Shown here one piece after another: positions 35,156 through 48,486 of a stretch of DNA of 58,397 bases (positions are counted from its first letter, which is position 1; each line of letters opens with the position of its first letter). This stretch comes from Betaproteobacteria bacterium RIFCSPLOWO2_02_FULL_67_26 (GTDB taxonomy: Bacteria > Pseudomonadota > Gammaproteobacteria > Burkholderiales > SG8-41), in NCBI GenBank assembly GCA_001771935.1, contig MERD01000040.1:48058-106454 (forward strand). Direction: 5' to 3'. Both the position numbers and the translations under genes were made by a program. Below the pieces are notes generated by a model, which worked only from the letters and a program-made list of their open reading frames with translations, was not told the origin of the DNA and did not search any database.

Positions 35156-35470
35156 TTATCCGTCCATGCCGAAGCTGACGATCTGGCAGGTGAATGCTGC
35201 CTGATCGTAGAAATAGTAAACAAATATGGCTCTCTGAGTTAACTTGGCCACTGTCACCAGCGCCCAGAATCGATTCTTATCCGCAACGGTCGCCGTGCTA
35301 GGGAAACTGAGTTGGCCGGAAGGACAAGGAGAAGACGTGAAATAAACCGCAACACCATCGCCAGGGTAGTTTTCCAGCCTCCAAGCCGTTGGCACCACGT
35401 TCATGCTAGCAACTTCCGCGTGTGCTTGGGGTAGAAAGCTAATCAACAGCACGAACAAGACCTTCTTCAT
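35156..35470 (-). CDS. Small secreted two-Cys protein (AB5 B-subunit-like family, copy A)
   Basis: SD ggagg; signal MKKVLF...AHA; C...KNRFWALVTVAKLTQRAIFVY...C. Confidence 0.8.
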   Translation of the reverse strand: MKKVLFVLLISFLPQAHAEVASMNVVPTAWRLENYPGDGVAVYFTSSPCPSGQLSFPSTATVADKNRFWALVTVAKLTQRAIFVYYFYDQAAFTCQIVSFGMDG

Positions 35471-35520
35471 CCCGCCTCCCTGAGCTACGTGGTTCAAGGA
35501 AAGACCGCGAAATTATTCAT

Positions 35521-35865
35521 CTATGGCACGCCAACGGTTACGGCGTAGACCCGGCAAAAGGCACTGCCGCTGCCCGGCCAGAGCGAATCGTCATATGCGT
35601 GCACCCCGATCACCTTTTCGGCAAGGGACGCTCCGATCACTATCGCCAAATTCTGCTTGAATCCAGGGTCGGAGGAGCGCAACCAGAATCCTGCACCGCA
35701 ACCCGGTGCGGAATTCGATAGCCGAAAAACGACATCGCCATTTCCGTATTCAGAATAGCTTTGGGGCCCCCACACGATTTGGCCGCTAACCGTGACTATG
35801 GCGGCCTTGGCGGCAGTTACTATCATAAAAGCAGCTATGGCGAATCCAATTACGAACGTTTTCAT
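35521..35865 (-). CDS. Small secreted two-Cys protein (copy B)
   Basis: SD ggaggg; signal MKTFVI...AKA; C...KQNLAIVIGASLAEKVIGVH...C. Confidence 0.8.
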   Translation of the reverse strand: MKTFVIGFAIAAFMIVTAAKAAIVTVSGQIVWGPQSYSEYGNGDVVFRLSNSAPGCGAGFWLRSSDPGFKQNLAIVIGASLAEKVIGVHAYDDSLWPGSGSAFCRVYAVTVGVP

Positions 35866-35929
35866 GTGGGTTCCCTCCCGAATGGAAAGGTGGTCCGCCC
35901 GATTGGCGCGTGGTCTGACGAAACCACTC

Positions 35930-36253
35930 TCAGGGCAACAGCACCACACCGTCAATTTCATTCTGAGAACCTACGCATCCCAACGTATAGATATTCACGC
36001 TTCTATTTGTTGAATAGGCAAGAATCAACGTACTCAAAATGCCTTTATAACCGGACCGTGTAGATGGAATAACTAACGAATGAATGCTCGGGTTTGCGCA
36101 ATTGTCGGGATTTCCATTTCCCGTGGCCAGCTTGACATGGGCTCCAACGTCATTGACGACCAGTTCACTGATGGTGGCGGGTCCGGTATTAGCGGCGAAT
36201 ACGTTACCCGTCAAAACGAAACAGGCGGCAATCGCAGTCGTTAGCTTTTTCAT
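35930..36253 (-). CDS. Small secreted two-Cys protein (copy C)
   Basis: Signal MKKLTT...VFA; C...KGILSTLILAYSTNRSVNIYTLGC. Confidence 0.82.
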   Translation of the reverse strand: MKKLTTAIAACFVLTGNVFAANTGPATISELVVNDVGAHVKLATGNGNPDNCANPSIHSLVIPSTRSGYKGILSTLILAYSTNRSVNIYTLGCVGSQNEIDGVVLLP

Positions 36254-36321
36254 CTAATTTCCTCTTCCAGTCTCCACGCCAGTTCTTTGTGTGCTTGATT
36301 GGCAGCCGGGTTGTACATAGC

Positions 36322-36660
36322 TCATGGAATATAAAACCAATCAACGCTTTCGGTGTCGCCGAGGTGGGAGCATTCTCCCGTTCCGTATATCACTAGCGAC
36401 TTATTTGTCGAAAACGCAGTTAGCACTGCCGCAGCCTGGAGCCTCCCCGCAGCCGTGGCCCCATTGAATGCGAATCGACCGGTATTCGTCGCACATGGCG
36501 GCGCGTTGTTGTGCGTGGACGACGTATAGAAAACGACCCTGCCATCAGGAAGGACGTGGAAGTTCGAAATGTTCCCGCCTCCCGTGCCCGCGCTCACGGC
36601 GGTTGGCGCGAGCCAAAGGATCGCCGCAACTGCCGCCATCAAGCGCCGCACGACGGTCAT
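36322..36660 (-). CDS. Small secreted two-Cys protein (copy D)
   Basis: Start reassigned; signal ...AVSA; C...RLQAAAVLTAFSTNKSLVIYGTGEC. Confidence 0.8.
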   Translation of the reverse strand: MTVVRRLMAAVAAILWLAPTAVSAGTGGGNISNFHVLPDGRVVFYTSSTHNNAPPCATNTGRFAFNGATAAGRLQAAAVLTAFSTNKSLVIYGTGECSHLGDTESVDWFYIP

Positions 36661-36770
36661 CCTTTGACGCAGCGATCCCAAACAAACAAAGTTCACGAGA
36701 CAGCTCATCGGCGTGCTCCTCCGCTCAAGTAAAGGGGTCGAATTAGTCGAACCTTGCGCCTTTAATTCCC

Positions 36771-37094
36771 TCATGGGATATAGCAGTTTTCCATTTGGCA
36801 AACGCCTGAACTCGTGTGGTACACATAACAAGCGAATCCTTTATTCAATGCATATGCAGTGAGCGCCAGACTGTAGTAAATCTTGTGCGCTGAATCGGTG
36901 GCCGGGCTGAATAAGGTTCCGTAGAAACCATTGTGATTGGTACACGAGTATCCCGTCGGGTTCGTCCCCCGGACATATACTTGGTCATTGAAAACCGTAA
37001 CTTGCGTCACTTGTTCCAAGTAGTGCCAGCCCGCAATGCAGGGGGTTGATACCAACAACAATGCGGATACCACTGCGAGAATGTAGATCCTCAT
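36771..37094 (-). CDS. Small secreted Cys-containing protein (copy E)
   Basis: SD ggagg; signal MRIYIL...CIA; C...KIYYSLALTAYALNKGFACYV...C. Confidence 0.8.
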   Translation of the reverse strand: MRIYILAVVSALLLVSTPCIAGWHYLEQVTQVTVFNDQVYVRGTNPTGYSCTNHNGFYGTLFSPATDSAHKIYYSLALTAYALNKGFACYVYHTSSGVCQMENCYIP

Positions 37095-37159: not shown

Positions 37160-37573
37160 TTACACTGACCCTACTAACCTTTTCTTCGATCGATAAATGG
37201 ACATCGTTTTAGCATCCCCATCAACCAGCCTTTCAAAAAATAAGTCATCCATTGCCCACTCCGGAAAGCTCATCCATTTAAAAATCATAGTTCCTTTAAC
37301 CTTCTTGATTCCCACACACCATCCCTGAGGAACCGACCGCTCCTGCAACTCAAACATTTCTGCGGGGTAAGGATATGGATAATCACTGTCCTTAGATGTG
37401 TGCAAATACCACCACAAGCCGTCGTCTCGTTTCTCAAGTGCTTGGACCAAATATTCTTTGCCAACCGAAAGATCTCGAATGGGCCCCTCAATATGAATGG
37501 ATTGCCCAAGACGCGCTCGCACTTCAACGTCACCGATCTCAGCTAAATCATTGCATATACACTTCACACGCAT
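37160..37573 (-). CDS. Putative immunity protein for cassette 5
   Basis: Directly downstream of toxin; low GC; no signal peptide; LSVGKEYLV...YPYPAEMF...FPEW...FFERLVDGD. Confidence 0.7.
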   Translation of the reverse strand: MRVKCICNDLAEIGDVEVRARLGQSIHIEGPIRDLSVGKEYLVQALEKRDDGLWWYLHTSKDSDYPYPYPAEMFELQERSVPQGWCVGIKKVKGTMIFKWMSFPEWAMDDLFFERLVDGDAKTMSIYRSKKRLVGSV

Positions 37574-37610
37574 ATCTTTTCGATCCACAAGGGTTATCTT
37601 CCTCTGCTGC

Positions 37611-38540
37611 TTACTCCGCGTGCTTTGTAAATTTAAAATCCGTCAAGCTGCCAGTTTTTGGGTCTCTAACATAATGAACTGTAGAAGTCTTGCCAGCAGT
37701 AGATGTTTCAGTGTACTGCCATTTTTCCATCCCCTTGAATTTCGGATCACCGAGATTCTCAATGATCTTCGTTCCCTTCCCTTCCTTAGCCGCATCTAAA
37801 ACCATCTTATCCATTACACTTCTTGGCTCGCGGCTAAATTTGTCTGCTACCCTTGCAGTGATTTTCCCCTCCCTTTGTGCAGTAGCGGCAGTACTTGCGC
37901 TACGTTCTATCTGGCTTAATGTCTTCGCCGCGCCAATATTTAGACCACTTAATAAACCAGTTGCACCTCCCGCAATTGCTGCATCTGAACTTGCCGCGAT
38001 GGACCAATTGACCTGCCCAAACGCAGCTGCCTGGCTTATAGCGTCGGCAGCAACACCCAGGCCGTAACCAATACCTGTCAGCTTCGCAACCTCCACCAGA
38101 AAAACGGAGAGCGGCGAGTTTCCGTCTGGGTCCACAAACTTGTACGGGTTATTGTTCCCATACGCATACCGGTTGAAGCTGTGGAGGTTTTCCTCTCTAA
38201 ACCCAACCGCATCCACCCCCATAAACCGCCCCACCACCGGGTCGTAGTAGCGCGCCCCGAAGTAGGAGAGGCCCGTGTCCGCGTCAAACGCCTTGCCGTG
38301 GAAAAACTGCCTATTACCCGCCGCGGCGGACTCGTTTTTGGTCCGTTCCCCGTACGGCCGGTAACCCTCGCGCCAGACGATATTGCCGTCGATATCGGTG
38401 GCGGCGACGGGACTGCCCGCGACATCGGTGTGGATAAAGATGAGCGCTTCAGTCGCCTCTGCCGGGGCAGGTACGATGAGCAGCGCTATGGCAAGCGCCA
38501 TCCAGACTGGATAGAACCACTTGATGGATTTGGGTGTCAT
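37611..38540 (-). CDS. Signal peptide + Rhs core + toxin tip, cassette 5 (putative BECR-like RNase)
   Basis: Signal ...PAEA/TE; FIHTDVAGSP; ARYYDP..GRF; NNPYKFVDPDG; tip ends HYVRDPKTGSLTDFKF. Confidence 0.85.
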   Translation of the reverse strand: MTPKSIKWFYPVWMALAIALLIVPAPAEATEALIFIHTDVAGSPVAATDIDGNIVWREGYRPYGERTKNESAAAGNRQFFHGKAFDADTGLSYFGARYYDPVVGRFMGVDAVGFREENLHSFNRYAYGNNNPYKFVDPDGNSPLSVFLVEVAKLTGIGYGLGVAADAISQAAAFGQVNWSIAASSDAAIAGGATGLLSGLNIGAAKTLSQIERSASTAATAQREGKITARVADKFSREPRSVMDKMVLDAAKEGKGTKIIENLGDPKFKGMEKWQYTETSTAGKTSTVHYVRDPKTGSLTDFKFTKHAE

Positions 38541-38589
38541 CGAAAAATCGAGCCTGGCCTGAATTCCTAATTCGAATCCGCCCCCTCTC

Positions 38590-38790
38590 TTAGTCAAGCT
38601 TGGACTCCCAGTCCGGATCAATTTCATACAAAGCATCGCCGATATCACGCTGATGACAACCTTGCGCTTCCAACTGGTCGATCAGCTGCCGTAGTGGAAG
38701 TGGTGCGCTTAATCTCCACGGTTTTCTTGAATGAGGCGGTGTGGCCTCAGCCTCGTATTTATCACCGAGCTTCTTGATTGACAGAGTCAT
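38590..38790 (-). CDS. Putative immunity protein for cassette 4
   Basis: 66 aa; starts 1 nt after the toxin stop. Confidence 0.7.
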   Translation of the reverse strand: MTLSIKKLGDKYEAEATPPHSRKPWRLSAPLPLRQLIDQLEAQGCHQRDIGDALYEIDPDWESKLD

Positions 38791-38791
38791 G

Positions 38792-39757
38792 CTATTCGCC
38801 TACAGCTTTTATTCGTTCGTAGTTCTGATAGCCACGCTGATTAATCTGCTCTAGTTCCGTCTTGTAATATGGGCTCGTCGGATTGGGATAATTAGCCCGG
38901 CCAGGTGCCGGACCACAGTCAAGAATTCGACATCCTTGATCCATTTTTTCATTAATCCATCTGCGGTTATTTTCCATCCATTTCTCAGGAGGAGTCTTCG
39001 TTGGGTTATACCAGCTTGCGCCACGGGCCTGTGCAGTTGGAATGACTCGATCCGCCATTCCCTCTCCAATCACTATTGCCTCTTGGGCACCTTTTGACGC
39101 TTGACGTGCCGCCCAAGCAACTGCTGCTCCCCCACCAATTGCCCCGCCGACTGCTCCTGCCGCTGCTGAGGGTGCAGCCTCCTGTGCCGCTCCCCTCAAA
39201 CTTACATCAGCGAAGTTTCCAAACGCAGCCCACTGGCTTACGGTATCCGCCGCAAGAGCGAGTCCGCCAGCTGTGGCAGCACCCGCAATCATGCCCTTGA
39301 CCACGGGAATCAAGAAAATCAGGAATGCCGCATTACCATCGGAATCCAGATATTTGTAGGGGTTGTTATTCCCGTAGGCATAGCGATTGAAGGAGTGTAG
39401 ATTCTTCTCATCGAATCCCTGCGCATCCACCCCCATAAACCGCCCCACCACGGGGTCGTAGTACCGCGCCCCGAAGTAGCTCAACCCCGTGTCCGCATCA
39501 AACGCCTTGCCGTGGAAAAACTGCCTATTACCCGCCGCGGCGGACTCGTTCCTGGTCCGCTCCCCGTAGGGACGGTAGCCCTCGCGCCAGACGATATTGC
39601 CGTTGATGTCGGTGGCGGCGACCGGGCTGCCTGCCACATCGGTGTGGATGAAGGTCAGCGTCTCAGTTGCCTGAACCGGAGAAGCGGCAACGATAAGCAA
39701 CGCGATAGCGAGTGCTGACCAGACCCGATGCAACCACTTGATGGATTTGGATGTCAT
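38792..39757 (-). CDS. Signal peptide + Rhs core + toxin tip, cassette 4 (unknown activity)
   Basis: Signal ...PVQA/TE; Rhs core; NNPYKYLDSDG; tip VIGEGM.DRV...N.RWI...DCGP...SPYY..E. Confidence 0.85.
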   Translation of the reverse strand: MTSKSIKWLHRVWSALAIALLIVAASPVQATETLTFIHTDVAGSPVAATDINGNIVWREGYRPYGERTRNESAAAGNRQFFHGKAFDADTGLSYFGARYYDPVVGRFMGVDAQGFDEKNLHSFNRYAYGNNNPYKYLDSDGNAAFLIFLIPVVKGMIAGAATAGGLALAADTVSQWAAFGNFADVSLRGAAQEAAPSAAAGAVGGAIGGGAAVAWAARQASKGAQEAIVIGEGMADRVIPTAQARGASWYNPTKTPPEKWMENNRRWINEKMDQGCRILDCGPAPGRANYPNPTSPYYKTELEQINQRGYQNYERIKAVGE

Positions 39758-39779
39758 CGAAAAATCTAGCTTGGCCCAA

Positions 39780-40190
39780 TTAACTGTCGTTTGAGAAATT
39801 AAACTTTCTCGCCGAGTCAATTAATTCATCTGTTGCACTCTTCAAGTGTTCTAGAAATTCAGAAACAGCCTGCGATTCACGAACAGGGAACCGTACAAGC
39901 AAATCCTGTCCTTTTTGATGAATCATCCGAACTGACGACTCTACGGTCCACACAGATTGTTCCCATCGTGCGTCTAACCACCACGAATAAGCTTTGCCTG
40001 AGCGCGTTTCAACATCAACAAATGCTTCTAAGACTGGGCCAGTCTTATAGCGTCGTATATCAAAACCACGCTTCGCACCACTCACGCCGGGTTTATCGCG
40101 AAGCGAATGCGCTAGCTCAAGCAAAGCTTCGTTTATTAAGCTAATACCGTCCAAGAGGGATCGCCCGATGATGTTATTTGGGTCCTGCAT
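39780..40190 (-). CDS. Putative immunity protein for cassette 3
   Basis: 136 aa; starts 6 nt after the toxin stop; low GC; no signal peptide. Confidence 0.7.
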   Translation of the reverse strand: MQDPNNIIGRSLLDGISLINEALLELAHSLRDKPGVSGAKRGFDIRRYKTGPVLEAFVDVETRSGKAYSWWLDARWEQSVWTVESSVRMIHQKGQDLLVRFPVRESQAVSEFLEHLKSATDELIDSARKFNFSNDS

Positions 40191-40196
40191 AACATC

Positions 40197-41153
40197 TCAT
40201 TTCGGAAACTTACCACGCTCAGATACAGCTTCCTTCAGCGTTTCAGGAGAAATGTTGCGTACGCTTACGTGTCCCGGAGGGAACTTATCAATCGTTACTG
40301 AGCCGGGTGGAAGTTTTGACGTGTCTACACCGAAGTAGTTTTCTCCAGGCCTAAGCACCGGGCGTTCACCTTTTGGCAATGGGTTAGAGAGAGAATCTCG
40401 AAAAGAAATTGCCTCTTCGCCTGGCCTGACTTTGAGGTTTGAAGGAGATGGATTTCCTTCTCGATAAATGACTTTTGGAGAGCTGCCAGTTCTCGCAGCG
40501 TTTGCCACACCGGCTAGTGCTCCCCCTTGCGCGCCCCCAGCAAAACCCAGCAGCGCGCCGACAAAGGCACCATCGCCAGCAGCATCTACTACACCGCCTA
40601 CACCCCATATGTTGGCAACGGTGCCAGTTTGATAGTACTGAATTCCCGCGTTGAATACGGCCGCTGATCCTCCCCCAATGGCTGCTCCACCTCCAACCCA
40701 TGCCAAGATTGGAATAATTATGGTCGGCGAATTGCCATCCGGATCCTTGAATTTGTAGGGATTGTTATTCCCGTAGGCGTAGCGGTTGAAGGAGTGCAGG
40801 TTTTTCTCATCGAAATGCTGTGGGTCCACCCCCATAAACCGCCCCACCACCGGGTCGTAGTAGCGCGCCCCGAAGTAGGAGAGGCCCGTGTCCGCGTCAA
40901 ACGCCTTGCCGTGGAAAAACTGCCTATTACCCGCCGCGGCGGACTCGTTCCGGGTGCGCTCCCCGTAGGGCCGGTAGCCTTCCCGCCAGATCACGTCGCC
41001 ATTGATGTCCGTGGCGGCGACGGGACTGCCCGCGACATCGGTGTGGATGAAAGTCAGCGTCTCGGTCGCCCGAGCTGGAGCGGCAGCGATGAGCAACGCC
41101 ATGGCGAGCGCTGCCCAGACCTGATAGAACCACTTGATGGATTTGGGTGTCAT
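40197..41153 (-). CDS. Signal peptide + Rhs core + toxin tip, cassette 3 (possible ART-like fold)
   Basis: Signal ...PARA/TE; Rhs core; NNPYKFKDPDG; tip IYREG...NLKVRP..AISF...PPGHVSV. Confidence 0.85.
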   Translation of the reverse strand: MTPKSIKWFYQVWAALAMALLIAAAPARATETLTFIHTDVAGSPVAATDINGDVIWREGYRPYGERTRNESAAAGNRQFFHGKAFDADTGLSYFGARYYDPVVGRFMGVDPQHFDEKNLHSFNRYAYGNNNPYKFKDPDGNSPTIIIPILAWVGGGAAIGGGSAAVFNAGIQYYQTGTVANIWGVGGVVDAAGDGAFVGALLGFAGGAQGGALAGVANAARTGSSPKVIYREGNPSPSNLKVRPGEEAISFRDSLSNPLPKGERPVLRPGENYFGVDTSKLPPGSVTIDKFPPGHVSVRNISPETLKEAVSERGKFPK

Positions 41154-41195
41154 TGAAAAATTGGTCACTTTAACCTTGACACCTTTAGCCCCTAA

Positions 41196-41474
41196 TCATG
41201 CCGATGGCTTGGAATATGGCAACGAGATTCGACGCGCCGCACAGACTGCCTCGTAGTGCGTGAGTGCTTCCGATAGTTGCTCTCGCACATCTTCGATTTC
41301 CGCCGCCAGATCCACTACTTGGTTAGCCTCCAAGAGCTTGGCCATCCGTTCCATGCTTCGTACCAGCGCATTCAAAGTATCGCCTTGAACGACAACACCG
41401 GGATAGTTTCGCTCTGGAAGCTGGACTATCGCGAAGTTGGTCTGACGGCTCAAAAGCTCAACATGCCCACTCAT
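41196..41474 (-). CDS. Putative immunity protein for cassette 2 (DUF6959-like)
   Basis: N.AIVQLPERNYPGVVVQGDTL motif; starts 2 nt after the toxin stop. Confidence 0.7.
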   Translation of the reverse strand: MSGHVELLSRQTNFAIVQLPERNYPGVVVQGDTLNALVRSMERMAKLLEANQVVDLAAEIEDVREQLSEALTHYEAVCAARRISLPYSKPSA

Positions 41475-41476
41475 AC

Positions 41477-42406
41477 TTACCTCGGTGTCGGTGTGAACGT
41501 GATGTATGGTTTATTGGGATCGACAGTCCCGCGCAAGAAGTCCTGATTGCGTGGCTCACCCAAACCACGCTGGCCTTCGGGAAGCGAACTTTTCATACTG
41601 TGCGCGGTTGATCCCCGTGTGCTCTCTGGAATAACATAGTCCCAATCAGATGTGGGGCCTGCCGTTCCTTTGGCCCTGCTACCGACAACCGAGATCTCGG
41701 TGCCGGTTCTATCGGCCGCGTTCTGGATACGAGCGATCTCGCTGGTAGTCAGGTTCTCAAGCTTTGCCCCCCCGCCTGCTACTGGCCCTACACTCTTGGC
41801 AACACTCGCCCCTATTCCAATAGCCTTGATAACGCCTAATCCCGCAGCCGTTACACCAAGATCGGGAAACGATGTAGGTATCACTTGCCCCGAGCCCGCC
41901 GGTACCGCAGGCATGGGCGCTAACGCGTCGAATCCCAACCATAATCCCACGCCTACGATCATCGGGAGGATGGCTTGGCCTGCCCTCCCGTCCGGATCCA
42001 CGAATTTGTACGGATTGTTATTGCCGTAAGCGTAGCGATTGAAGGAGTGCAGGTTCTTCTCATCGAATCCCTGCGCATCCACCCCCATAAACCGCCCCAC
42101 CACAGGGTCGTAGTAGCGCGCCCCGAAGTAGGAGAGCCCCGTATCCGTATCAAACGCCTTGCCGTGAAAAAACTGCCGGTTACCCGCCGCGGCGGACTCG
42201 TTCCGGGTCCGCTCCCCGTACGGCCGGTAGCCCTCGCGCCAGATCACGTTGCCGTTGATGTCCGTGGCGGCGACCGGGCTGCCCGCCACATCGGTGTGGA
42301 TGAAGGTCAGCGTCTCGGTCGCCCGAGCTGGAGCGGCAGCGATGAGCAACGCCATGGCGAGCGCTGCCCAGACCTGATAGAACCACTTGATGGATCTGAG
42401 TTTCAT
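41477..42406 (-). CDS. Signal peptide + Rhs core + nucleotidyltransferase-like toxin tip, cassette 2
   Basis: Signal ...PARA/TE; Rhs core; NNPYKFVDPDG; tip VVGSRAKGTAGPTSDWDY (pol-beta GS...DxD motif). Confidence 0.85.
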   Translation of the reverse strand: MKLRSIKWFYQVWAALAMALLIAAAPARATETLTFIHTDVAGSPVAATDINGNVIWREGYRPYGERTRNESAAAGNRQFFHGKAFDTDTGLSYFGARYYDPVVGRFMGVDAQGFDEKNLHSFNRYAYGNNNPYKFVDPDGRAGQAILPMIVGVGLWLGFDALAPMPAVPAGSGQVIPTSFPDLGVTAAGLGVIKAIGIGASVAKSVGPVAGGGAKLENLTTSEIARIQNAADRTGTEISVVGSRAKGTAGPTSDWDYVIPESTRGSTAHSMKSSLPEGQRGLGEPRNQDFLRGTVDPNKPYITFTPTPR

Positions 42407-42426
42407 CGAAAAACAGAGCCTGGCCG

Positions 42427-42720
42427 CTATTTTTTAGCCCACATGAGAAAAGTTTGAAGAATCTCCTTCAAATTCCGCGGGCCACAGTCTCCTTTAAAGA
42501 CGCCATTCTCAATCCGACAGAGAATCCAGTCATTCTCGTCTTCGCGCTGAATTTTGATCGTATCGAAGCTACGAGAATACAAGGGCGTGTCTGTCAATTC
42601 GATAGTGATTGCCCAACCCGGGTTGTCAAGGGTTTCAATCGTTATCCCATATGTGTGCTCCCAGTCTCCATTGCACATGGAGACATACCACTCTTGAAGA
42701 CTATCAAGCGTGTCGATCAT
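42427..42720 (-). CDS. Immunity protein Imm53-like
   Basis: WY..MCNGDWEHTYGI.IETLDNPGW signature; ATGA overlap with the toxin stop. Confidence 0.85.
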   Translation of the reverse strand: MIDTLDSLQEWYVSMCNGDWEHTYGITIETLDNPGWAITIELTDTPLYSRSFDTIKIQREDENDWILCRIENGVFKGDCGPRNLKEILQTFLMWAKK

Positions 42721-43640
42721 TGCTGTCTCGACCCAGGAATTTCATCTGGGGTTGCGGGGCGCACTCCTCCGGGAATACTTTTCCCTTGCGTGTGAGGCGT
42801 CGAAACGCGCTCGCCCGTATCCTTATTCGTATGAGGACGGCCAACGACATCTGTACTTTGCTTTGAATCCCAGCCGCTTGGATTCCTAGGATTTGGTGTC
42901 CAAGTCTCATGCCGGGTAATTTCTCCAGTCCTAGGGTCAGTCTTCCAAGTTGTATGCTCTGCATCCGCGTCTTTGGCTGGCTCTACTTTATTGCCTCGGC
43001 TAAAGATTAGATTCCCAATTTTGTCCGCTAATTCCGAGAAGCCCGGCAATTGGTTTCCCGAAACCGCTGACCCTGGTGTCGTCAGAATAGTCAAACCGGA
43101 ATCATTGCTGGCCGGGAATCCCTGTAACCCCGGCTGTGGTTTTGCCGCTTGATAACCCCCAAGATATACATACGTACCTACGGCAATTCCGATAAATAAA
43201 ATCTTATCCGCATACCTTCCATCAGAATCTATGTACTTGTATGGGTTGTTATTCCCATATGCATATCGGTTGAAGCTGTGGATGTTGTCTTCCCTGAATC
43301 CAACCGCATCCACCCCCATAAACCGCCCAACCAGGGGATCGTAGTAACGGGCGCCGAAGTAGCTCAGGCCTGTATCCGCGTCAAAGGCTTTGCCATGAAA
43401 AAACTGCCGATTACCCGCCGCGGCGGACTCGTTCTTAGTCCGCTCCCCGTAGGGCCGGTAGCCTTCCCGCCAGATCACGTCGCCATTGATGTCCGTGGCG
43501 GCGACGGGACTGCCCGCGACATCGGTGTGGATGAAAGTCAGCGTCTCAGTTGCCTGAACCGGAGAAGCGGCAACGATAAGCAACGCGATAGCGAGTGCTG
43601 ACCAGACCCGATGCAACCACTTGGCCGATTTGCTTGTCAT
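42717..43640 (-). CDS. Signal peptide + Rhs core + Ntox24-like toxin tip, cassette 1
   Basis: SD ggagggg; signal ...PVQA/TE; Rhs core; NNPYKYIDSDG; tip PNPRNPSGWD...H.NK.TG..V.TPH...PGGVRPA.PDEIP. Confidence 0.88.
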   Translation of the reverse strand: MTSKSAKWLHRVWSALAIALLIVAASPVQATETLTFIHTDVAGSPVAATDINGDVIWREGYRPYGERTKNESAAAGNRQFFHGKAFDADTGLSYFGARYYDPLVGRFMGVDAVGFREDNIHSFNRYAYGNNNPYKYIDSDGRYADKILFIGIAVGTYVYLGGYQAAKPQPGLQGFPASNDSGLTILTTPGSAVSGNQLPGFSELADKIGNLIFSRGNKVEPAKDADAEHTTWKTDPRTGEITRHETWTPNPRNPSGWDSKQSTDVVGRPHTNKDTGERVSTPHTQGKSIPGGVRPATPDEIPGSRQQ

Positions 43641-43712
43641 GGTTTTCCCCTCCACAGCAACCTTTTGCTTGAGAATCTCATCTGCGTTCATCTGCGTTTA
43701 TCGGCGGCTAAT

Positions 43713-46700
43713 CTAGTCATCGAGCAGCAGTTGAAGGATCGCCGGCAGCCAACTGAGGTTGTAGATCGTGACCTGGAACGTGGTCGAGCTTTGCGCGTTG
43801 TTCGCGTCGCCCGAGTAGTCCGCCGTGATGGTGTGGCTACCCACTGAAAGACTGGAGAGCGTAATACTCGCCGAGCCATTGGTGACAGTCACCGGTGAGC
43901 CAAAAGGTACACCGCCCTCCTTGAAAGTCACCGTTCCGGTCGGCGAGCTACCGGAAACGTTGACCGTCAACGTGACATTCCCGCCGATTAGTGAAGATAT
44001 CGAACCGGTTGATGTCGTGGTCGCTGTCCCGACTCGGGTAATGGCCTTGACGCCGACCAGCTTGCCCTGGAGATAGACGTACTCCTTGAGGTCGGATCCC
44101 CAACTCGAAGTCGTGGGCGTGTCCTCCAGCAGGAGCTGACCGTCGAGGCCGTACATGAAGTAAGTCTTTATGCCTCCCTTCTCCGTGCGCACGCGCATGT
44201 TGAGTCCGTCGTACGCGTAGTTCACCGGGTCAGTCTGGCCACATCTGAAGCAAGTCATTTGTAAAGCGTCGTTATAGGTGAACATCGGCGTGCTCGCCGT
44301 GCCGTTGTTAACGACATTTCCATAGAGGTCGTAGGCAAACTGGTATGGCCTGTTGGAAATGCTGGCAAGCCGGTTCGAGCCATCGTAGCCGTAGTTCAAT
44401 ATCTGGCCGCCTTTGGTCTGCGAAAGAAGGTTTCCGGCACCGTCATAGCTGAATGCCCGCGCCTCGCCGGAGGTGGTGTTGGCCAACACTAGACGGTCAA
44501 TAGCATCGTACTGCAGGTCCGGCATCGAGTTGAGCCCATCCACGATATCGTCAACTCGCGTCTCAAGGCTCTTTACGTTGCCCGTGCCGTCATAGGTGTA
44601 GGTATGCTTTAGATCAACCAGCGGGGGCGTGCTGCGGAGAGAGGCCAACTGCTGAGGCCATAGCCGGTTATTGAGTGCAATCGACGTGGTGACGCCATTC
44701 GCATACTCGACGGTTTTCAGTTCTCCCGACGGATGGAAGTCAATGTTTCCGGCGAATGGAGTTGCAGCCCTGGGCCGCCCGAACCCGTTCGGGTTGAAGC
44801 TAACCACTGTCCCTGACGGGAAAGTAGTTGTGCTTCTTCCGTCGTTACCGGAGTAGGAATGGCCGAGCGAATATATCCGGCCATCGACCGTCAGCCGATC
44901 CAGCGTCAGGTTCTTGTTCGCGTCGTACTCGAAGTGCCGTAACGCCGCTGTGCCATATTCCACATCCTTCAACAGTCCGTCGCCGTAATAGCTCCGGATT
45001 ACAGTGGGCAGTCCGCCCGGGTAATTAATTTGAGTTAGGCGATTGAGCGCGTCGTAGATAAAGCCAGTGGTTGGTGTCCCGTTCACGGAACGCGAGGTCA
45101 TGTTGCCGACCTGGTCTCGTCCAAAGGTCGTCGTATCGGTTTCGGGATCAATGATTGACGTCAGGAAATTGCCGGCGGGAACTTGGCCAACTGCGTTGTA
45201 CACATAGGCCCGCGTCTTGTCCCCCTGAGCTACCGTGAGAATCCGCCCGATCGGATTGCGCGTAATGGTCACGTTTGCTCCAGGCTCAGGAACAGAGATG
45301 CTCATCAACTCACGCTTGTCGGGGTCGCCATAGGCACGGTACGAATAGGTATGCGTGATATTCCGCTCGTTCGTGATCGCTACGGTCGTGGCACCATAGT
45401 TGTACGTTCGCGTCGCGGGCCCAGGGTGCTTCACTGTCTTTATCCGGTCGAGCATGTCGTAATCCATGCAAGTTCCCGCCGGCGGATTGCCCGGGCAAGG
45501 AACCCCCGATCCGGCGTTCGGATAGGATACGTAGATACGCTGGCCGACGGCATTATGAGCCAAGTTAATGGTTGAGTTCTGGCTCGGAGACGCACTGTCT
45601 GTCTTGACGACCGAAGCCATTCTCCCAAACCCATCGTAGTTGACGGTTTGAGTAAGCGTGCCTCGGGCCACAACCATTTGGCTGGCGGAAGGATAAGTGA
45701 TGGATACGGGATTCCCGAATGGATAGGTAATCGCGTAAGACCCAGGCTGATTCCCTTGAAGACGATTCAGTCCATCGTAACGGTATTGAATCGTGTCACC
45801 TTTTCCGTCCATCTCAGTGGTCACGTTGCCCTCGTTGCTTATTACTCGAGTTACGTTATTACCGGGAACCGGGCGAATTTCCGTTTGGGGAATGCCGCGC
45901 TTATGGTTGCTGAACTCGGTCGTGAAGCCTGCTCCCCTCGCATCTGTGCGGGTGAGCAGGTTCCCATTGCCAGGGTCGTAGGTGTAATTGGTAGGCACCC
46001 CGAAGCGATTTTCCTGCGTCACATTTCCGCGGGTATCTATGATGCGAGTGATCGAGAAGTTGGGAACACCCAAAATCGTTTCGTCCTTTACCTGGTGGAT
46101 GATCCACGGACCACTGATACTGTTCTGATACTGATACGTCAGGTTAATTGTGCGTGAAAAACCGGAGGAGCTTTCGGTAACAGTTAAGGGATTACCATAG
46201 GCATCGAAATTATTCGAATAATCGGTTGTGTATGTGTTGCCATCCCGAGAAATTACTTTTGTCTGGAGAACGGGAGCACGAGTATCCAAATCGTTTGCAA
46301 GCGTGCTTCCCGGACGTCGATTATCCTGATTGGAGATGAGCTGGCTCGTCCAGGTATAGGTTTCAGTCTGTACTGGTGACTGCCCCGGATCAGTCTGCTG
46401 CTTTGACAGCAAGAGCCCGACGCGCCAATAGGTTCCCGTCTCAACGGTGCCATATCCCACGTGCTGATAGGTAGTAGTACCATTGAGTGCTGTGACGGTT
46501 GTCGTATCGGGATCGTTGAATGCGATCGATGGAATGTACGAAAATGTCCATGCGCCACCGTCTGAAGTGGTCTTCCCGGATACGACCGTGTTTTGCACTC
46601 CGACTGCAAAAATCGTTTGAATATATGAATAGTTGATCGTTCCGCCTTGCGGATAAGTCACACTCGTCATGGACTTGAGACCCGGACTACCGCCGGTCGA

Positions 46701-47567
46701 CTTGTATGTGTAATGCCATGCCCCACCGGCTGGCGGTGTCACGGTTTGGAGGAACAAGCCAACGGAAGGAACGACTGCAACCTCGTACTGCCATGTTCGG
46801 GTTCCGTCGCTTATGGAAGTGAGACGCACTCCGTTAGCGTCGCTGGTGTACGAGTACGTGACCGTGCGCCCATCAGACGTGATCAACGTGCCTGGCACCA
46901 TAAAGCCACTGAAAGATTGGTAGCTGATCGTCATGTAATTGCCGTTCCGGTCCACGATACGTGTGGTATACCAAGCCTGCTGTCCAAACGGCGCATTCGC
47001 ATCAGCACGCTGCGTCATCTCGTAGCGTGTTCCATCCGGCGAGTAGACAAGCAGCCCTGTAGGACTGCTCATACACTCCGCGCGCCATCTGTTGGTAGTG
47101 ACAAAACGTGATTGGGCGAGAAAATAAGTATCGTCCCGAAAAAGAATCTGCCTGCTGCCGTCGGGAAGTTCCAATACAGGCATCCGAAAGCCGTCTTCAA
47201 AGTCTGCGAAGCAAATATCAACAGAGGCTTTTCGAAGCACCCGGCCGAAATGCATGGTCCAGCCAACTCCGAAGGGGGTCGGTTCTGCGACACCGGACTC
47301 GTCCACGTTGGTATACGACCGTTGAATCTTGAGATCGAAGCCTCCGTTCCCCGGAATGTAAAGGTCGACGTAGTGATGTTGTAGCCGCCCGGTGTGAGGA
47401 TCAATGTGCTCGTTGAAATGCTGGTTTAGATAGGAGCGCGTGGGATACAGCCCCGGCTCTTTGTAATAATCGAAGTTCGGGTCTGTGTCCTGTGCCCTTG
47501 CGTGCTGAGCAATACCGAACGTGAAGCTCAGCATGACGATCGCGCGTAGTATCGTCCACGTTTTCAT
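43713..47567 (-). CDS. Secreted Rhs/YD-repeat shell protein lacking the Rhs core, with C-terminal Ig-like domain (1284 aa)
   Basis: SD aaggggag; signal MKTWTIL...HARA/Q; DUF6531-like EHIDPHTG.L...DLYIPG.GG.DL..QRSY; many YD repeats; ends EYVYLQGKLVG, then Ig-like PTGTVTF...GSHTITADYSGD, then WLPAILQLLLDD. Confidence 0.9.
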   Translation of the reverse strand: MKTWTILRAIVMLSFTFGIAQHARAQDTDPNFDYYKEPGLYPTRSYLNQHFNEHIDPHTGRLQHHYVDLYIPGNGGFDLKIQRSYTNVDESGVAEPTPFGVGWTMHFGRVLRKASVDICFADFEDGFRMPVLELPDGSRQILFRDDTYFLAQSRFVTTNRWRAECMSSPTGLLVYSPDGTRYEMTQRADANAPFGQQAWYTTRIVDRNGNYMTISYQSFSGFMVPGTLITSDGRTVTYSYTSDANGVRLTSISDGTRTWQYEVAVVPSVGLFLQTVTPPAGGAWHYTYKSTGGSPGLKSMTSVTYPQGGTINYSYIQTIFAVGVQNTVVSGKTTSDGGAWTFSYIPSIAFNDPDTTTVTALNGTTTYQHVGYGTVETGTYWRVGLLLSKQQTDPGQSPVQTETYTWTSQLISNQDNRRPGSTLANDLDTRAPVLQTKVISRDGNTYTTDYSNNFDAYGNPLTVTESSSGFSRTINLTYQYQNSISGPWIIHQVKDETILGVPNFSITRIIDTRGNVTQENRFGVPTNYTYDPGNGNLLTRTDARGAGFTTEFSNHKRGIPQTEIRPVPGNNVTRVISNEGNVTTEMDGKGDTIQYRYDGLNRLQGNQPGSYAITYPFGNPVSITYPSASQMVVARGTLTQTVNYDGFGRMASVVKTDSASPSQNSTINLAHNAVGQRIYVSYPNAGSGVPCPGNPPAGTCMDYDMLDRIKTVKHPGPATRTYNYGATTVAITNERNITHTYSYRAYGDPDKRELMSISVPEPGANVTITRNPIGRILTVAQGDKTRAYVYNAVGQVPAGNFLTSIIDPETDTTTFGRDQVGNMTSRSVNGTPTTGFIYDALNRLTQINYPGGLPTVIRSYYGDGLLKDVEYGTAALRHFEYDANKNLTLDRLTVDGRIYSLGHSYSGNDGRSTTTFPSGTVVSFNPNGFGRPRAATPFAGNIDFHPSGELKTVEYANGVTTSIALNNRLWPQQLASLRSTPPLVDLKHTYTYDGTGNVKSLETRVDDIVDGLNSMPDLQYDAIDRLVLANTTSGEARAFSYDGAGNLLSQTKGGQILNYGYDGSNRLASISNRPYQFAYDLYGNVVNNGTASTPMFTYNDALQMTCFRCGQTDPVNYAYDGLNMRVRTEKGGIKTYFMYGLDGQLLLEDTPTTSSWGSDLKEYVYLQGKLVGVKAITRVGTATTTSTGSISSLIGGNVTLTVNVSGSSPTGTVTFKEGGVPFGSPVTVTNGSASITLSSLSVGSHTITADYSGDANNAQSSTTFQVTIYNLSWLPAILQLLLDD

Positions 47568-47668
47568 TGTGACTTCTCCCCTTACCTTCAGCGTGGCACA
47601 AGCGTTGCGGTTAATTGCAGACGCAAAAAGCAGTTCATGTTTACAGCGTGTTCCTTCTGAAGCGCAAA

Positions 47669-47980
47669 TCAAGAGTTAGGATCGACCTGATTGACGATAC
47701 AGAATCCTGAACCATCGATTCCGTCGGTGTAAACCGTCACCCCTGAGTTCTGAATTTTTGCTATCAGAGTGACGGCAATCATGGTTTTCGCGCTTTCCGG
47801 TATCTTCATCCAGCCAGCAATGGTTCCCGCACAGTTATCCGGCAAACCTGAGTCAAGCATGATCAATAGCCCGCTTGTAAGCGAAGTCGTATTGTAAATA
47901 TTGCCGGATTGATAATGGGGTCCCGAAAATGCAGACGAGGCGAAAACGATTCCACAAAGCACGAGAAGGGCTCTTGTCAT
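47669..47980 (-). CDS. Small secreted two-Cys protein (copy F)
   Basis: SD gggag; signal ...SAFS; PDNC...KTMIAVTLIAKIQNSGVTVYTDG...C. Confidence 0.8.
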   Translation of the reverse strand: MTRALLVLCGIVFASSAFSGPHYQSGNIYNTTSLTSGLLIMLDSGLPDNCAGTIAGWMKIPESAKTMIAVTLIAKIQNSGVTVYTDGIDGSGFCIVNQVDPNS

Positions 47981-48153
47981 AGTAACTCCCAGCGTACGCC
48001 CAAGGTCTGTCTATATATTGCAGTAGCTGACGTTCACCGCGCTACCGGCGCTGCGACTCCGATCTGTGCCGCGAATCCTTACTTATAGTGCTGAATATCG
48101 GACGCGCAATTGCAAACGTCTAACTTACAGTCATAGGAATAGCCCATTCACAG

Positions 48154-48486
48154 CTACTTCTGTAACCAAATATGTACAGCCCGAATGCAGGAATCTGGTT
48201 CATAGGTAGCCACACGCACCTTTAGGCCAGTCGCCAGTGCCATCAGCGCGGTCGCATATGCCTTGTCGTGCAGCTTCTGCGTACCAGCAGCATCGCGTGG
48301 AAACGTAATCTGTCCGGCAGTACTGCAGAGCCCCGATCCACCCGTCACAAGGACGACAAAGTCGTCGGTATTGCCGCTGGTATTAGTAACGCCCGTGATC
48401 TCCCCATCCCAAAGGACATAACCAGCGCTTGCATTCAACGACATTGCAAGAAGCAACGCGCCGATCAAGCAAATCATCTTTCTCAT
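48154..48486 (-). CDS. Small secreted two-Cys protein (copy G)
   Basis: Start reassigned to MRKMIC; signal ...ASA; C...KAYATALMALATGLKVRVATY...C. Confidence 0.8.
   Translation of the reverse strand: MRKMICLIGALLLAMSLNASAGYVLWDGEITGVTNTSGNTDDFVVLVTGGSGLCSTAGQITFPRDAAGTQKLHDKAYATALMALATGLKVRVATYEPDSCIRAVHIWLQK

Follow-up and report, generated by a model that had tools for sequence, protein, structure and literature searches.

The window analyzed here, a 58,397-nt stretch of DNA from a betaproteobacterial draft genome (126 contigs, 94% complete), contains an array of Rhs-related genes, all located on the minus strand at coordinates that agree with the first-pass annotation (Table 1). The array begins with a core-less YD-repeat protein (the shell), followed by five genes (cartridges C1-C5), each with an immunity gene behind it. 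Seven small secreted paralogs (S1-S7) surround the array on both sides (35156-37094 and 47669-48477), and the whole block forms a low-GC island, with a GC content of ~0.46-0.57 against ~0.63-0.71 in the flanks.

Table 1 Features of the split Rhs array and its flanks, in order of window position.
Feature	Position	Strand	Basis or remark
S1	35156-35470	minus	profile match
S2	35521-35865	minus	profile match
S3	35930-36253	minus	profile match
S4	36322-36660	minus	profile match
S5	36771-37094	minus	profile match
Presumed immunity gene 5, 142 aa	37160..37588	minus	assigned by position only
Cartridge C5, 309 aa: signal peptide, Rhs core, tip without known family	37611..38540	minus	
Presumed immunity gene 4, 66 aa	38590..38790	minus	assigned by position only
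Cartridge C4: signal peptide, Rhs core, tip without known family	38792..39757	minus	
Presumed immunity gene 3, 136 aa, no family	39780..40190	minus	assigned by position only
Cartridge C3: signal peptide, Rhs core, tip without known family	40197..41153	minus	
Immunity gene 2 (DUF6959)	41196..41474	minus	Pfam E 3.3e-20; behind C2
Cartridge C2, 309 aa: signal peptide, Rhs core, tip	41477..42406	minus	weak NTP_transf_2 (nucleotidyltransferase) match
Immunity gene 1 (Imm53)	42427..42720	minus	Pfam E 3.5e-37; behind C1
Cartridge C1, 307 aa: signal peptide, Rhs core, Ntox24-like tip	42717..43640	minus	Pfam, NCBIfam
Core-less YD (Rhs) shell, 1284 aa	43713..47567	minus	DUF6531, RHS_repeat, Big_3_5, TIGR01643
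Shell C-terminal tail, 14 aa	43716..43757	minus	motif recurring at shell C-ends
Shell Big_3_5 Ig-like domain, aa 1191-1267	43767..43997	minus	Pfam E 7.2e-17
Shell last YD strand LKEYVYLQGKLVGVK, aa 1160-1174	44046..44090	minus	pairs with the cartridge's first mature strand in the predicted complex
S6, small secreted OB-fold protein, 103 aa	47669..47980	minus	immediately upstream of shell
S7, small secreted paralog, DUF5992	48154..48477	minus	E 1.7e-25

From the N-terminus onward, the shell has a signal peptide (aa 1-25), a plug resembling DUF6531 (Pfam match at aa 53-122), the YD repeats, then an Ig domain and a tail at the C-terminus; homologous shells possess the same N-terminus. Its YD-repeat cage is recognized by RHS_repeat (E 6e-15) and TIGR01643 (E 1.5e-11), the YD repeat being the only NCBIfam match. 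Neither Pfam nor NCBIfam gave a match to TIGR03696, PAAR, VgrG or toxin families in the shell, in line with the first-pass annotation, which had described it as devoid of PAAR/VgrG, Rhs core and toxin. Beyond the last YD strand, the chain runs on into the Ig-like domain and then into the tail LSWLPAILQLLLDD, whose motif recurs on shell C-ends where the locus also has small OB-fold genes. The Ig domain, the tail and the seven flanking paralogs were absent from the earlier annotation.

The Rhs core is located on five separate ORFs, not at the C-terminus of the YD-repeat polypeptide. PF03527 and TIGR03696 match all five cartridges (E 1.6e-20 to 3.5e-18), and the signal peptides were called by a hydrophobicity heuristic together with an AxA-type motif immediately before the core. 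The mature N-terminus reads TE(T/A)L(T/I)FIHTDVAGSPVAATD, and C1 carries a GGAGGGG ribosome-binding site ahead of its ATG. D110 and D137 are invariant in 18 aligned core sequences and correspond in the alignment to both Asp of TccC3 (6suf), the residue numbers of which are presumed; the cores thus harbor the Asp pair of the autoprotease as well as its DPxG cleavage motif, here D(P/S)DG with R or N instead of L as the next residue. Every tip opens with a 15-25-aa hydrophobic, Gly/Pro-rich stretch. The tips of C1-C5 are mutually different, those of C3-C5 giving no family match in domain searches, and each variable C-terminal toxin is followed by an immunity gene, pairs 3-5 being matched by position only. 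Ntox24 and Imm53, found at the first pair, are listed together (PMC3482391). By eye, all five immunity proteins lack a signal peptide. The Pfam and NCBIfam searches and the ORF coordinates thus bear out the annotated plan of a core-less secreted shell and five signal-peptide/core/toxin genes, including the TE.L. start, unique tip and immunity gene of each cartridge, with signal peptides as called by the heuristic.

Canonical single-chain Rhs proteins (T6SS-linked) and the Sec-dependent WapA share with the window the YD cage, the DUF6531-like N-terminal plug, the two-Asp TIGR03696 core, the variable C-terminal toxin and the downstream immunity gene. Unlike in canonical Rhs, core and toxin form a separate, second chain in the window that bears a signal peptide of its own, and PAAR/VgrG is lacking. 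A PAAR or VgrG-binding N-terminus had no Pfam match in the shell or window and TssC had none in the 94%-complete genome, which rules against a T6SS-delivered Rhs effector.

The cartridges also resemble rhs orphan modules in their tandem alternative tips, immunity genes and shared homology block; such modules, as described in the available part of Jamet and Nassif (2015, PMC4436062), have no start or trafficking part and recombine with a main gene. Because the tandem array has a homology block of ~460 nt, starting ~25 nt ahead of the ATG, with variants in a mosaic pattern, gene conversion is suggested, and the five genes could be read as ordinary silent modules kept for recombination, the shell being the decayed main gene. 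Similarly, a recent preprint (10.1101/2025.05.08.652813), in its available text, sorts sequences by length and files all Rhs of <=350 aa as orphans. This reading is very improbable, since the frame of each cartridge is intact and starts with an ATG and a signal peptide, the homology begins before the ATG, the same split occurs in many genera, and the shell offers no core region (NCBIfam, Pfam) with which to recombine. The start, the signal peptide and the missing recombination partner likewise place the cartridges outside the orphan-module class. Moreover, dN/dS is 0.06-0.15 at dS 0.44-1.05 in all ten cartridge pairs; judged by these ratios, purifying selection acts on all five cores.

That the split is an assembly artefact, or a single disruption of a fused gene, is almost certainly wrong. 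The genome is a draft, and the cartridge order is not independently proven because public-run contigs break inside the repeated core. Against an artefact, a contig of run X1 spans 43594-47800 without differences, joining the shell stop to the C1 start, and other contigs join each immunity gene to the next cartridge start (4 runs from 4 studies, one of which may be the source sample). The split is also present in complete genomes. No RNA run contained the locus.

A protein search for signal peptide plus core (E<=1e-3) retrieved 2167 proteins with lengths of 169-541 aa; the 120 best of these are mostly ~280-350 aa (172-480 overall) and have diverse toxin families. The signal peptide lies directly before the core in 44 of 80 fetched loci, a count that leaves out the heuristic false positives L014 and L087. 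Among the 33 informative loci, defined as those with >=4.5 kb of upstream sequence and from named genomes, the signal-peptide-core gene is in 23 immediately preceded by a core-less YD frame, which in 21 of these 23 ends within -177..+30 nt of the cartridge frame. Thirteen shells stop 5 to 21 aa past the point where their match to the YD region of the window ends, which by eye is 2 to 6 aa after a EYIYLGGKRIAQ-type strand. In another order, shell and cartridge are paired in 14 of 20 regions hand-picked for short frames. These two sets contain the neighboring core-less YD and signal-peptide-core genes for which the first-pass annotation had proposed a search, and the architecture is found in dozens of genomes from several orders and many genera, so that the relatives show a recurring split and not a one-off disruption unique to the window. 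In the fused relatives L075, L081 and L087, ...EYIYLGNKLIAE continues directly as ...YQHTDHLG. RHS_repeat is found in 13 of the 120 best longer relatives, at 53-64% identity.

The complementary break is consistent with the predicted complex of shell residues 330-1180 and the core without its toxin. The prediction scores 0.86 against 0.00 for the best of three controls, a mark to which 58 of 80 solved complexes came up, as did 2 of 110 mismatched pairs; the pass may stem in part from the resemblance of the split gene to the solved single-chain Rhs cages. Contacts agree to >=98% between runs, with a partner pLDDT of >=83. In the model, cartridge residues 28-40 touch shell residues 1168-1179 (shell:cartridge contacts 1173:34, 1170:36 and 1175:32), and the first mature strand of the cartridge is set against the last strand of the shell, as the first-pass annotation had predicted. 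The best solved matches to the cartridge core are the Tc toxin TcB-TcC structures 6suf, 4igl and 9c4k (E 1e-15 to 1e-9). There, too, a single YD cocoon is built from two proteins and encloses the toxin at the C-terminus of the second one. The chain break of Tc toxins, however, falls within the shell, TcC contributing a large part of the cage, and TcB comes with a beta-propeller and a TcA partner. SpvB, beta-propeller and TcA had no Pfam match in the shell or the window ORFs, and a Tc toxin BC pair was ruled against by this lack of TcB-type parts and of a TcA partner.

The nearest known counterpart is the bacteriocin Bcn-A of Xanthomonas perforans which, according to the available part of Marutani-Hert et al. 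(2020, PMC7259588), requires ORFA (a YD protein), the small ORF2 and ORF4, the latter having 290 aa, a signal peptide and two predicted membrane helices at aa 148-198. Its activity, >100 kDa, is found in the supernatant and is abolished in the type II secretion mutant xpsD (PMC7259588, same part). As far as described there, the locus has the layout found in the window: a ~1400-aa YD/RHS protein, small ORFs of ~100-125 aa, a ~300-aa signal-peptide ORF with hydrophobic helices just past aa 145, and a ~145-aa immunity ORF. The window differs in its five cartridges, its seven small genes, an Ig instead of an FN3-like domain, and no TamB neighbor. Locus L140 (TamB, a 1401-aa shell, small genes of 105 and 126 aa, a 330-aa cartridge and a 146-aa ORF) matches the Bcn-A locus in gene order and sizes; its YD gene is without a core, and its 330-aa gene encodes signal peptide, core and toxin. 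In addition, primer A3 of the Bcn-A paper, as given in its available part, encodes the tail motif LYQLLL in reverse complement, and peptide and primer look-ups found no match among the fetched loci and proteins. Bcn-A is probably a two-piece Rhs system whose parts were read differently, the link running via L140 and, for ORF4, via its published description only. In the accessible text, its authors regard ORFA as the toxin and ORF4 as accessory, and the split is undescribed. The preprint cited above reports, in its available text, type II secretion-linked Rhs families of Xanthomonas and Ralstonia with loci beside gsp genes, and predicts contact-independent release for them; the term 'signal peptide' occurs 0 times in that text. 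The first-pass annotation knew of no description of the architecture, while allowing that one might exist; this stands for the split itself, unrecognized in the available parts of both sources, but not for the systems, which both touch.

The cartridges might instead act alone, the Rhs core serving as a self-cleaving carrier of a Sec-exported toxin and the shell having an adhesive or other role or being merely co-regulated. Consistent with this, 10 of the 33 informative loci have no intact shell within the flank, including arrays of 3-5 cartridges (L037, L038, L051), a Xanthomonadales subfamily has shell-less arrays in L124, L125, L132 and L138, and short forms far outnumber longer ones in protein searches (2167 vs 424). 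We consider this unlikely: shell and cartridge are close neighbors in 23 and 14 loci of the two sets, the shell stops at precisely the point at which a core would be expected to start, the complex prediction passes, and Bcn-A requires ORFA as well as ORF4 (PMC7259588, available part). The shell of the long arrays may also lie past the fetched flank.

The small paralogs S1-S5 match the profile with E values of 7e-19 to 3e-26. The AF2 model of S6 (pLDDT 92.3) is an OB fold with a central helix and resembles five AB5 B subunits (Z 8.0-9.1): pertussis toxin S5 (Z 9.1, rmsd 1.8 over 72 residues), PltB (8.6), LT-IIb B (8.4), ArtB (8.3) and Stx2 B (8.0); the prodomain of pro-protein-glutaminase scores equally high (Z 9.4). 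Foldseek with this model gave no match at E <= 1e-3. A signal peptide, a ~85-aa mature OB fold and one Cys pair are common to the small paralogs and AB5 B subunits, although there is no sequence similarity between them. The predicted model of a five-domain protein, P0246, has a pLDDT of 30.8.

As for the export route, GspD/E/F/G/J genes adjoin split loci in eight cases (seven by Pfam, L055 by GspF and clustering). The window's own genome, 94% complete, has 6 secretin matches and 10 GspF-domain matches in 6 open frames, and no match to T2SSG.

The hydrophobic, Gly-rich opening of the tips could also act as a stop-transfer anchor that keeps the toxin cytoplasmic. The cartridges would then be inner-membrane proteins in which, once the signal peptide has been cleaved, the stretch behind D(P/S)DG stops transfer. 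This would leave the core on the periplasmic side, while the toxin would remain cytoplasmic, together with its immunity protein, and would not be caged as proposed below. Such a stretch opens all tips, and the immunity proteins are without signal peptides. Hydrophobic pre-toxin segments are, on the other hand, common in exported polymorphic toxins, and those of the window are Gly-/Pro-rich and of moderate hydrophobicity only. The membrane helices of Bcn-A ORF4 fit an anchor, and the activity of Bcn-A in the supernatant argues against one (PMC7259588, available part). Overall, a membrane-anchored cartridge seems quite unlikely.

We favor, as the likely reading, a Sec-exported, T6SS-independent Rhs bacteriocin assembled from separate polypeptides. 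The first-pass proposal of separate shell and core-toxin chains with a complementary break is supported because the split recurs, the cores are under purifying selection, the strands pair in the predicted complex, and Bcn-A needs both genes. The shell and each cartridge would cross the inner membrane via their own signal peptides; in the periplasm, the first mature strand of the cartridge (T32-I36) would add onto the last strand of the shell (aa 1169-1175), the Rhs core would then close the cage with the toxin inside, and its conserved aspartyl autoprotease would cleave behind D(P/S)DG. The cores of the five cartridges are nearly identical, and the cartridges may therefore be alternative loads of one cage, each with a cytoplasmic immunity protein; binding, encapsulation and loading are predicted for all five toxins. 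The need for a 160-aa toxin to enter the cage, or be enclosed by it, in trans weighs against the proposal. The particle would leave the cell probably by a type II secretion-like pathway, and the OB-fold paralogs are probably a third component, docking on the C-terminal tail of the shell.

More tentatively, and less likely than not, the system may be an A-B type Rhs bacteriocin, in which a cage loaded in trans in the periplasm with interchangeable cartridges would plug, by an LPxxLQLLLD-like hydrophobic tail at the shell-core junction, into a target-choosing AB5-B-like OB-fold ring, the diffusible particle exiting by type II secretion. The split into shell and cartridge is a real, widespread and largely unrecognized variant of Rhs toxins.

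The split Rhs system in the window is genuine and extends beyond the span first annotated. A core-less YD-repeat protein (the shell) and five cartridges (C1 to C5, each a signal peptide followed by an Rhs core and a toxin) are encoded as separate polypeptides. Family profile scans of the 1284-aa shell gave no match to Rhs core, PAAR, VgrG or toxin families, which bears out the first-pass annotation, and TIGR03696 matches the cartridges at about aa 35-145 (E 1.6e-20 to 3.5e-18). A basic-hydrophobic-AxA stretch directly precedes each core (in one case ALLIAAAPARA followed by TETLTFIHTD), and the N-terminus of the shell has the same form. By this heuristic, which is not a dedicated predictor, all six proteins have their own signal peptide, as had been proposed. 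In the fused relative of locus L075, the strand-to-core passage reads ...EYIYLGNKLIAEKR followed directly by DQTIIYQHTDHLG. Because the equivalent strand in fused relatives enters the core within a few residues, the break between shell and cartridge is complementary, in line with the earlier claim. A small gene lies after every cartridge. The claim that each is an immunity gene found family support for C1, whose Ntox24-like tip (the variable toxin part) is followed by an Imm53 gene, and for C2, which is followed by a DUF6959 gene; the small genes behind C3 to C5 matched no family.

Features of the split Rhs locus in the window
Feature	Position	Strand	Description
Shell	43713-47567	minus	1284 aa; DUF6531, RHS_repeat and TIGR01643 matches
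Last YD strand of shell	aa 1160-1174	minus	LKEYVYLQGKLVGVK
Big_3_5 Ig-like domain of shell	aa 1191-1267	minus	after last strand; E 7.2e-17
C-terminal tail of shell	43716-43757	minus	14 aa, LSWLPAILQLLLDD
Five cartridges	downstream of shell	minus	307-321 aa; PF03527 and TIGR03696 in each
Seven small secreted paralogs	five at 35156-37094, two at 47669-48477	minus	~100 aa; all seven align, one matches DUF5992
Intergenic stretch between shell and C1	43679-43711		31-33 nt

Contigs from four public metagenome runs, one of which may be the source sample, match the locus without differences. One contig spans 43594-47800, covering the shell, its stop and the start of C1, and difference-free contigs of this kind make an assembly artefact very unlikely. 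Other contigs bridge each immunity gene to the next cartridge; contigs end within the repeated core, so the cartridge order lacks independent confirmation. We reject a frameshift or read-through fusion, since the signal peptide would then fall mid-chain, and the recurrence of the split in many loci rules out a one-off disruption of a fused gene. The five cartridges have ~460 nt in common, in a block that starts ~25 nt upstream of the ATG and ends at the codons for D(P/S)DG, and the variants within this block form a mosaic. Decay of the copies is made very unlikely by dN/dS values of 0.06-0.15 (dS 0.44-1.05; 111 mature core codons) in all 10 cartridge pairs, which indicate that each copy is maintained as a protein.

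The block lying at about 35-49 kb of the window has a GC content of 0.46-0.57 vs 0.63-0.71 in the flanks, which hold metabolic genes. Among 60 relatives, the signal-peptide part of the query is unmatched (no match starts before residue 16, most at residue 24 or later), and the nearest core has 57% identity and lies within 1672- and 1669-aa frames. The island looks acquired. There are no tRNA genes in the window, promoter and terminator scans gave fewer sites than in shuffled sequence, and no listed RNA run contains the locus. The intergenic stretch between shell and C1 reaches a contig depth of 45-163 vs about 2-10 alongside in three metagenome runs and 9.2 vs about 1-2 in the fourth; it has many different loose contig ends in all four runs and is common to unrelated contigs. 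The window's own genome encodes another Rhs protein, which is fused, exceeds 1900 aa and is cut off by the end of its contig (L141, G000:C98, 4965-10673), with Ig-like repeats ahead of the YD part and an adjoining transposase-like gene, both judged by eye.

Searching with signal peptide plus core retrieved 2167 proteins of 169-541 aa at E<=1e-3, and the best 120 of these, mostly of about 280-350 aa (overall 172-480), carry many different toxin families. Among 18 inspected sequences with the N-terminus present, 17 start with a hydrophobic signal-like stretch (the exception is protein P0099), which directly precedes (E/T)x(I/L)(T/I)(Y/F)xHxD in 14 and is separated from the core motif by Ig domains in three. 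In 80 fetched loci from named genomes, mostly Beta- and Gammaproteobacteria, a signal peptide stands directly before the core in 44, a count made after removal of L014 and L087 as heuristic false positives. A core-less YD frame lies directly upstream in 23 of the 33 loci having at least 4.5 kb upstream, and its end falls within -177..+30 nt of the cartridge frame in 21 of these 23. The remaining 10 comprise two fragmentary YD frames, three arrays of 3-5 cartridges and five with none in the flank. The homologous shells carry signal-peptide-like N-termini of their own and share the start IPDFYxxPGLxPNR. Many of them stop 5 to 21 aa past the final residue that aligns with the YD region of the window, or, by eye, 2 to 6 aa after ...EYIYLGGKRIAQ; the Ig domain of the shell is thus optional, because many shells end just after the last strand.

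In a second class, Ig, FN3 or lectin arrays are inserted between signal peptide and core, with a core-less shell adjoining (Pfam scan in L016, L022, L026, L030, L043 and L090; residues preceding the core in L017, L028 and L035). The longer relatives number 424 at E<=1e-3; most of the best 120 belong to this second class, and RHS_repeat occurs in only 13 of them (53-64% identity). Of 401 genomes in the order to which the L090 genome belongs, 246 match at 1e-10, and 107 of the 150 best matches fall in open frames <550 aa. Shell and cartridge were found together in 14 of 20 regions from this order, all picked for short frames. The genome search suggested at the outset, for core-less YD proteins beside signal-peptide-core genes, was productive in both samples (23/33 and 14/20 loci).

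Three further arrangements were observed. A Xanthomonadales subfamily of core-toxin genes (L124, L125, L132, L137:10547-11668 and L138) carries ~100 additional residues ahead of the hydrophobic stretch (...GFEDRIRKLGA...) and forms arrays without a shell in the 20 kb fetched. The core-less shell L014:1616-5734 has the C-terminus ...VPIPPWALLLLAAGLLG...HRRSR, which resembles a PEP-CTERM-type sorting signal. In Hahella sp. (L055:1-9912), 4 nt separate a signal-peptide-core-toxin gene from the end of a frame for a 3304-aa protein that has beta-propeller, TSP3 and Ig domains but lacks a YD match; GspE/F genes lie downstream.

Among solved chains, the cartridge core best matches TcdB2-TccC3 (E 1.1e-15), and also YenC2 and RhsA. 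The two catalytic Asp of TccC3 align with D110 and D137, which are invariant in 18 family members. The complex of shell residues 330-1180 with cartridge residues 27-145, which leaves out the toxin and the shell's first third, was predicted with a score of 0.86 vs 0.00 for the best of three controls. Of 80 solved complexes 58 attained this mark, as did 2 of 110 mismatched pairs. Contacts agree between runs to 98% or more, partner pLDDT is 83 or higher, and the lowest-error pairs join shell 1170-1175 with cartridge 32-36. In the model, the cartridge's first mature strand lies on the shell's last strand, as the first-pass annotation had expected. Such a pass can also arise through likeness to solved single-chain Rhs cages.

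No signal peptide was seen by eye on the five immunity proteins, so the toxin targets are probably cytoplasmic. A hydrophobic, Gly-rich stretch opens every tip and may aid entry into the target; alternatively, the same stretch may anchor the cartridge in the producer's membrane. GspD, E, F, G or J genes adjoin split loci in 8 loci, and all-against-all clustering of 4921 frames gave no further conserved neighbours. The window's own genome has no match to T2SSG or TssC (T6SS sheath), and contains elsewhere 6 secretin matches and 10 GspF-domain matches in 6 open frames. Assembly in trans and encapsulation are predicted, as are the route of export and the part played by the small proteins.

A profile built on the seven small paralogs matches 31 frames, spread over the window and 12 other loci and often immediately preceding the shell, as well as 11,699 cluster representatives at E<=1e-3. 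For S6, the paralog directly upstream of the shell (model pLDDT 92.3), Foldseek returned nothing at E<=1e-3, with AB5 B subunits in the top rows. A wider structural aligner matched S6 to pertussis toxin S5 (Z 9.1, rmsd 1.8, 72 aligned), PltB (Z 8.6), LT-IIb B (8.4), ArtB (8.3), Stx2 B (8.0) and a glutaminase prodomain (Z 9.4). B subunits of AB5 toxins are the nearest folds to the predicted OB fold of the small paralogs; the likeness is moderate and shows no function. Tandem small OB-like domains follow one signal peptide in the proteins P0246 (516 aa, five), P0318 (three) and P0249 (two). The five copies in P0246, whose model built without an alignment is unusable (pLDDT 30.8), hint at a five-part ring.

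The shell tail carries a hydrophobic motif, (L/I/V)PxxL(Q/H/M)LL(L/F/E)(D/E), at the shell-cartridge junction, which recurs at the shell C-ends of L012, L023, L031, L045, L062 and L140. This motif, defined post hoc and counted in related, non-independent genomes, ends 6 of 52 core-less shells, with small genes in 6/6 loci vs 4 loci among the 46 shells without it. A slightly wider form gave 10 matches in 5612 frames, seven at shell C-ends and one at aa 49 of an Ig-core-toxin protein (L035:9056-10957) whose shell has no tail; both positions correspond to the predicted shell-core junction. We propose that the tail would dock an oligomer of the small subunits, because the motif and the small genes co-occur and the motif sits at the junction.

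The closest known system is the bacteriocin locus Bcn-A of Xanthomonas perforans. Its published description lists TamB upstream of ORFA (1398 aa, RHS family), ORF2 (124 aa), ORF3 (100 aa), ORF4 (290 aa, signal peptide, helices at 148-198) and the immunity gene ORF5 (145 aa); ORFA, ORF2 and ORF4 are required, and the activity, in the supernatant and >100 kDa, is gone in an xpsD mutant (PMC7259588). ORFA is the toxin according to its authors (PMC7259588). In locus L140, TamB (E 1.5e-62) accompanies a core-less shell of 1401 aa, whose C-terminus reads ...VPLLYQLLLNG; two small genes encode 105 and 126 aa, a further gene encodes signal peptide, core and toxin in 330 aa, and there is an ORF of 146 aa. 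A protein identical to L140's is labelled Xanthomonas sacchari. Both loci thus contain TamB, a ~1400-aa RHS gene, two small ORFs, a signal-peptide ORF and a ~145-aa ORF, and the reverse complement of primer A3 (PMC7259588) encodes LYQLLL. The peptide motifs of the Bcn-A paper (PMC7259588) are absent from the 120 loci and 240 proteins examined, a degenerate pattern for ORF4 gave 0/401 genomes and 0/22 in a second search, and the paper's primers have no meaningful match in any fetched locus. By analogy through L140, strong but indirect evidence places Bcn-A in the split architecture, and the published genetics fit assembly in trans.

Other sources describe rhs orphan modules without trafficking parts (PMC4436062), tabulate RHS toxins exported by Sec together with the pairing of Ntox24 and Imm53 (PMC3482391), and connect gspG with large Rhs families of Xanthomonas and Ralstonia, predicting type II secretion and terming all Rhs sequences <=350 aa orphan modules (10.1101/2025.05.08.652813). 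"Signal peptide" has no occurrence in the text of this preprint, whose supplementary gene maps may show the split (10.1101/2025.05.08.652813). The earlier statement that no description was known holds for the split itself, of which literature searches on Rhs toxins, including Sec-dependent and T2SS-linked ones, found no account, and needs amending in that the Bcn-A report (PMC7259588) and the preprint (10.1101/2025.05.08.652813) touch what are likely the same systems. The window system is a member of a large family whose architecture appears to be unrecognised in print.

An Rhs toxin is usually regarded as one chain, with a cage that encloses the chain's own C-terminal toxin, and genes for a short Rhs core are customarily labelled silent orphans. 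Should the cage and the core-toxin be secreted as separate proteins, thousands of supposed orphans would be active genes, one cage could serve several toxins per cell without recombination, and encapsulation would have to be possible in trans, outside the cytoplasm. Bcn-A gains a concrete, testable reading, with the toxin on ORF4, not ORFA. The architecture also opens a way into the study of contact-independent Rhs delivery, in which a receptor-binding subunit may take part.
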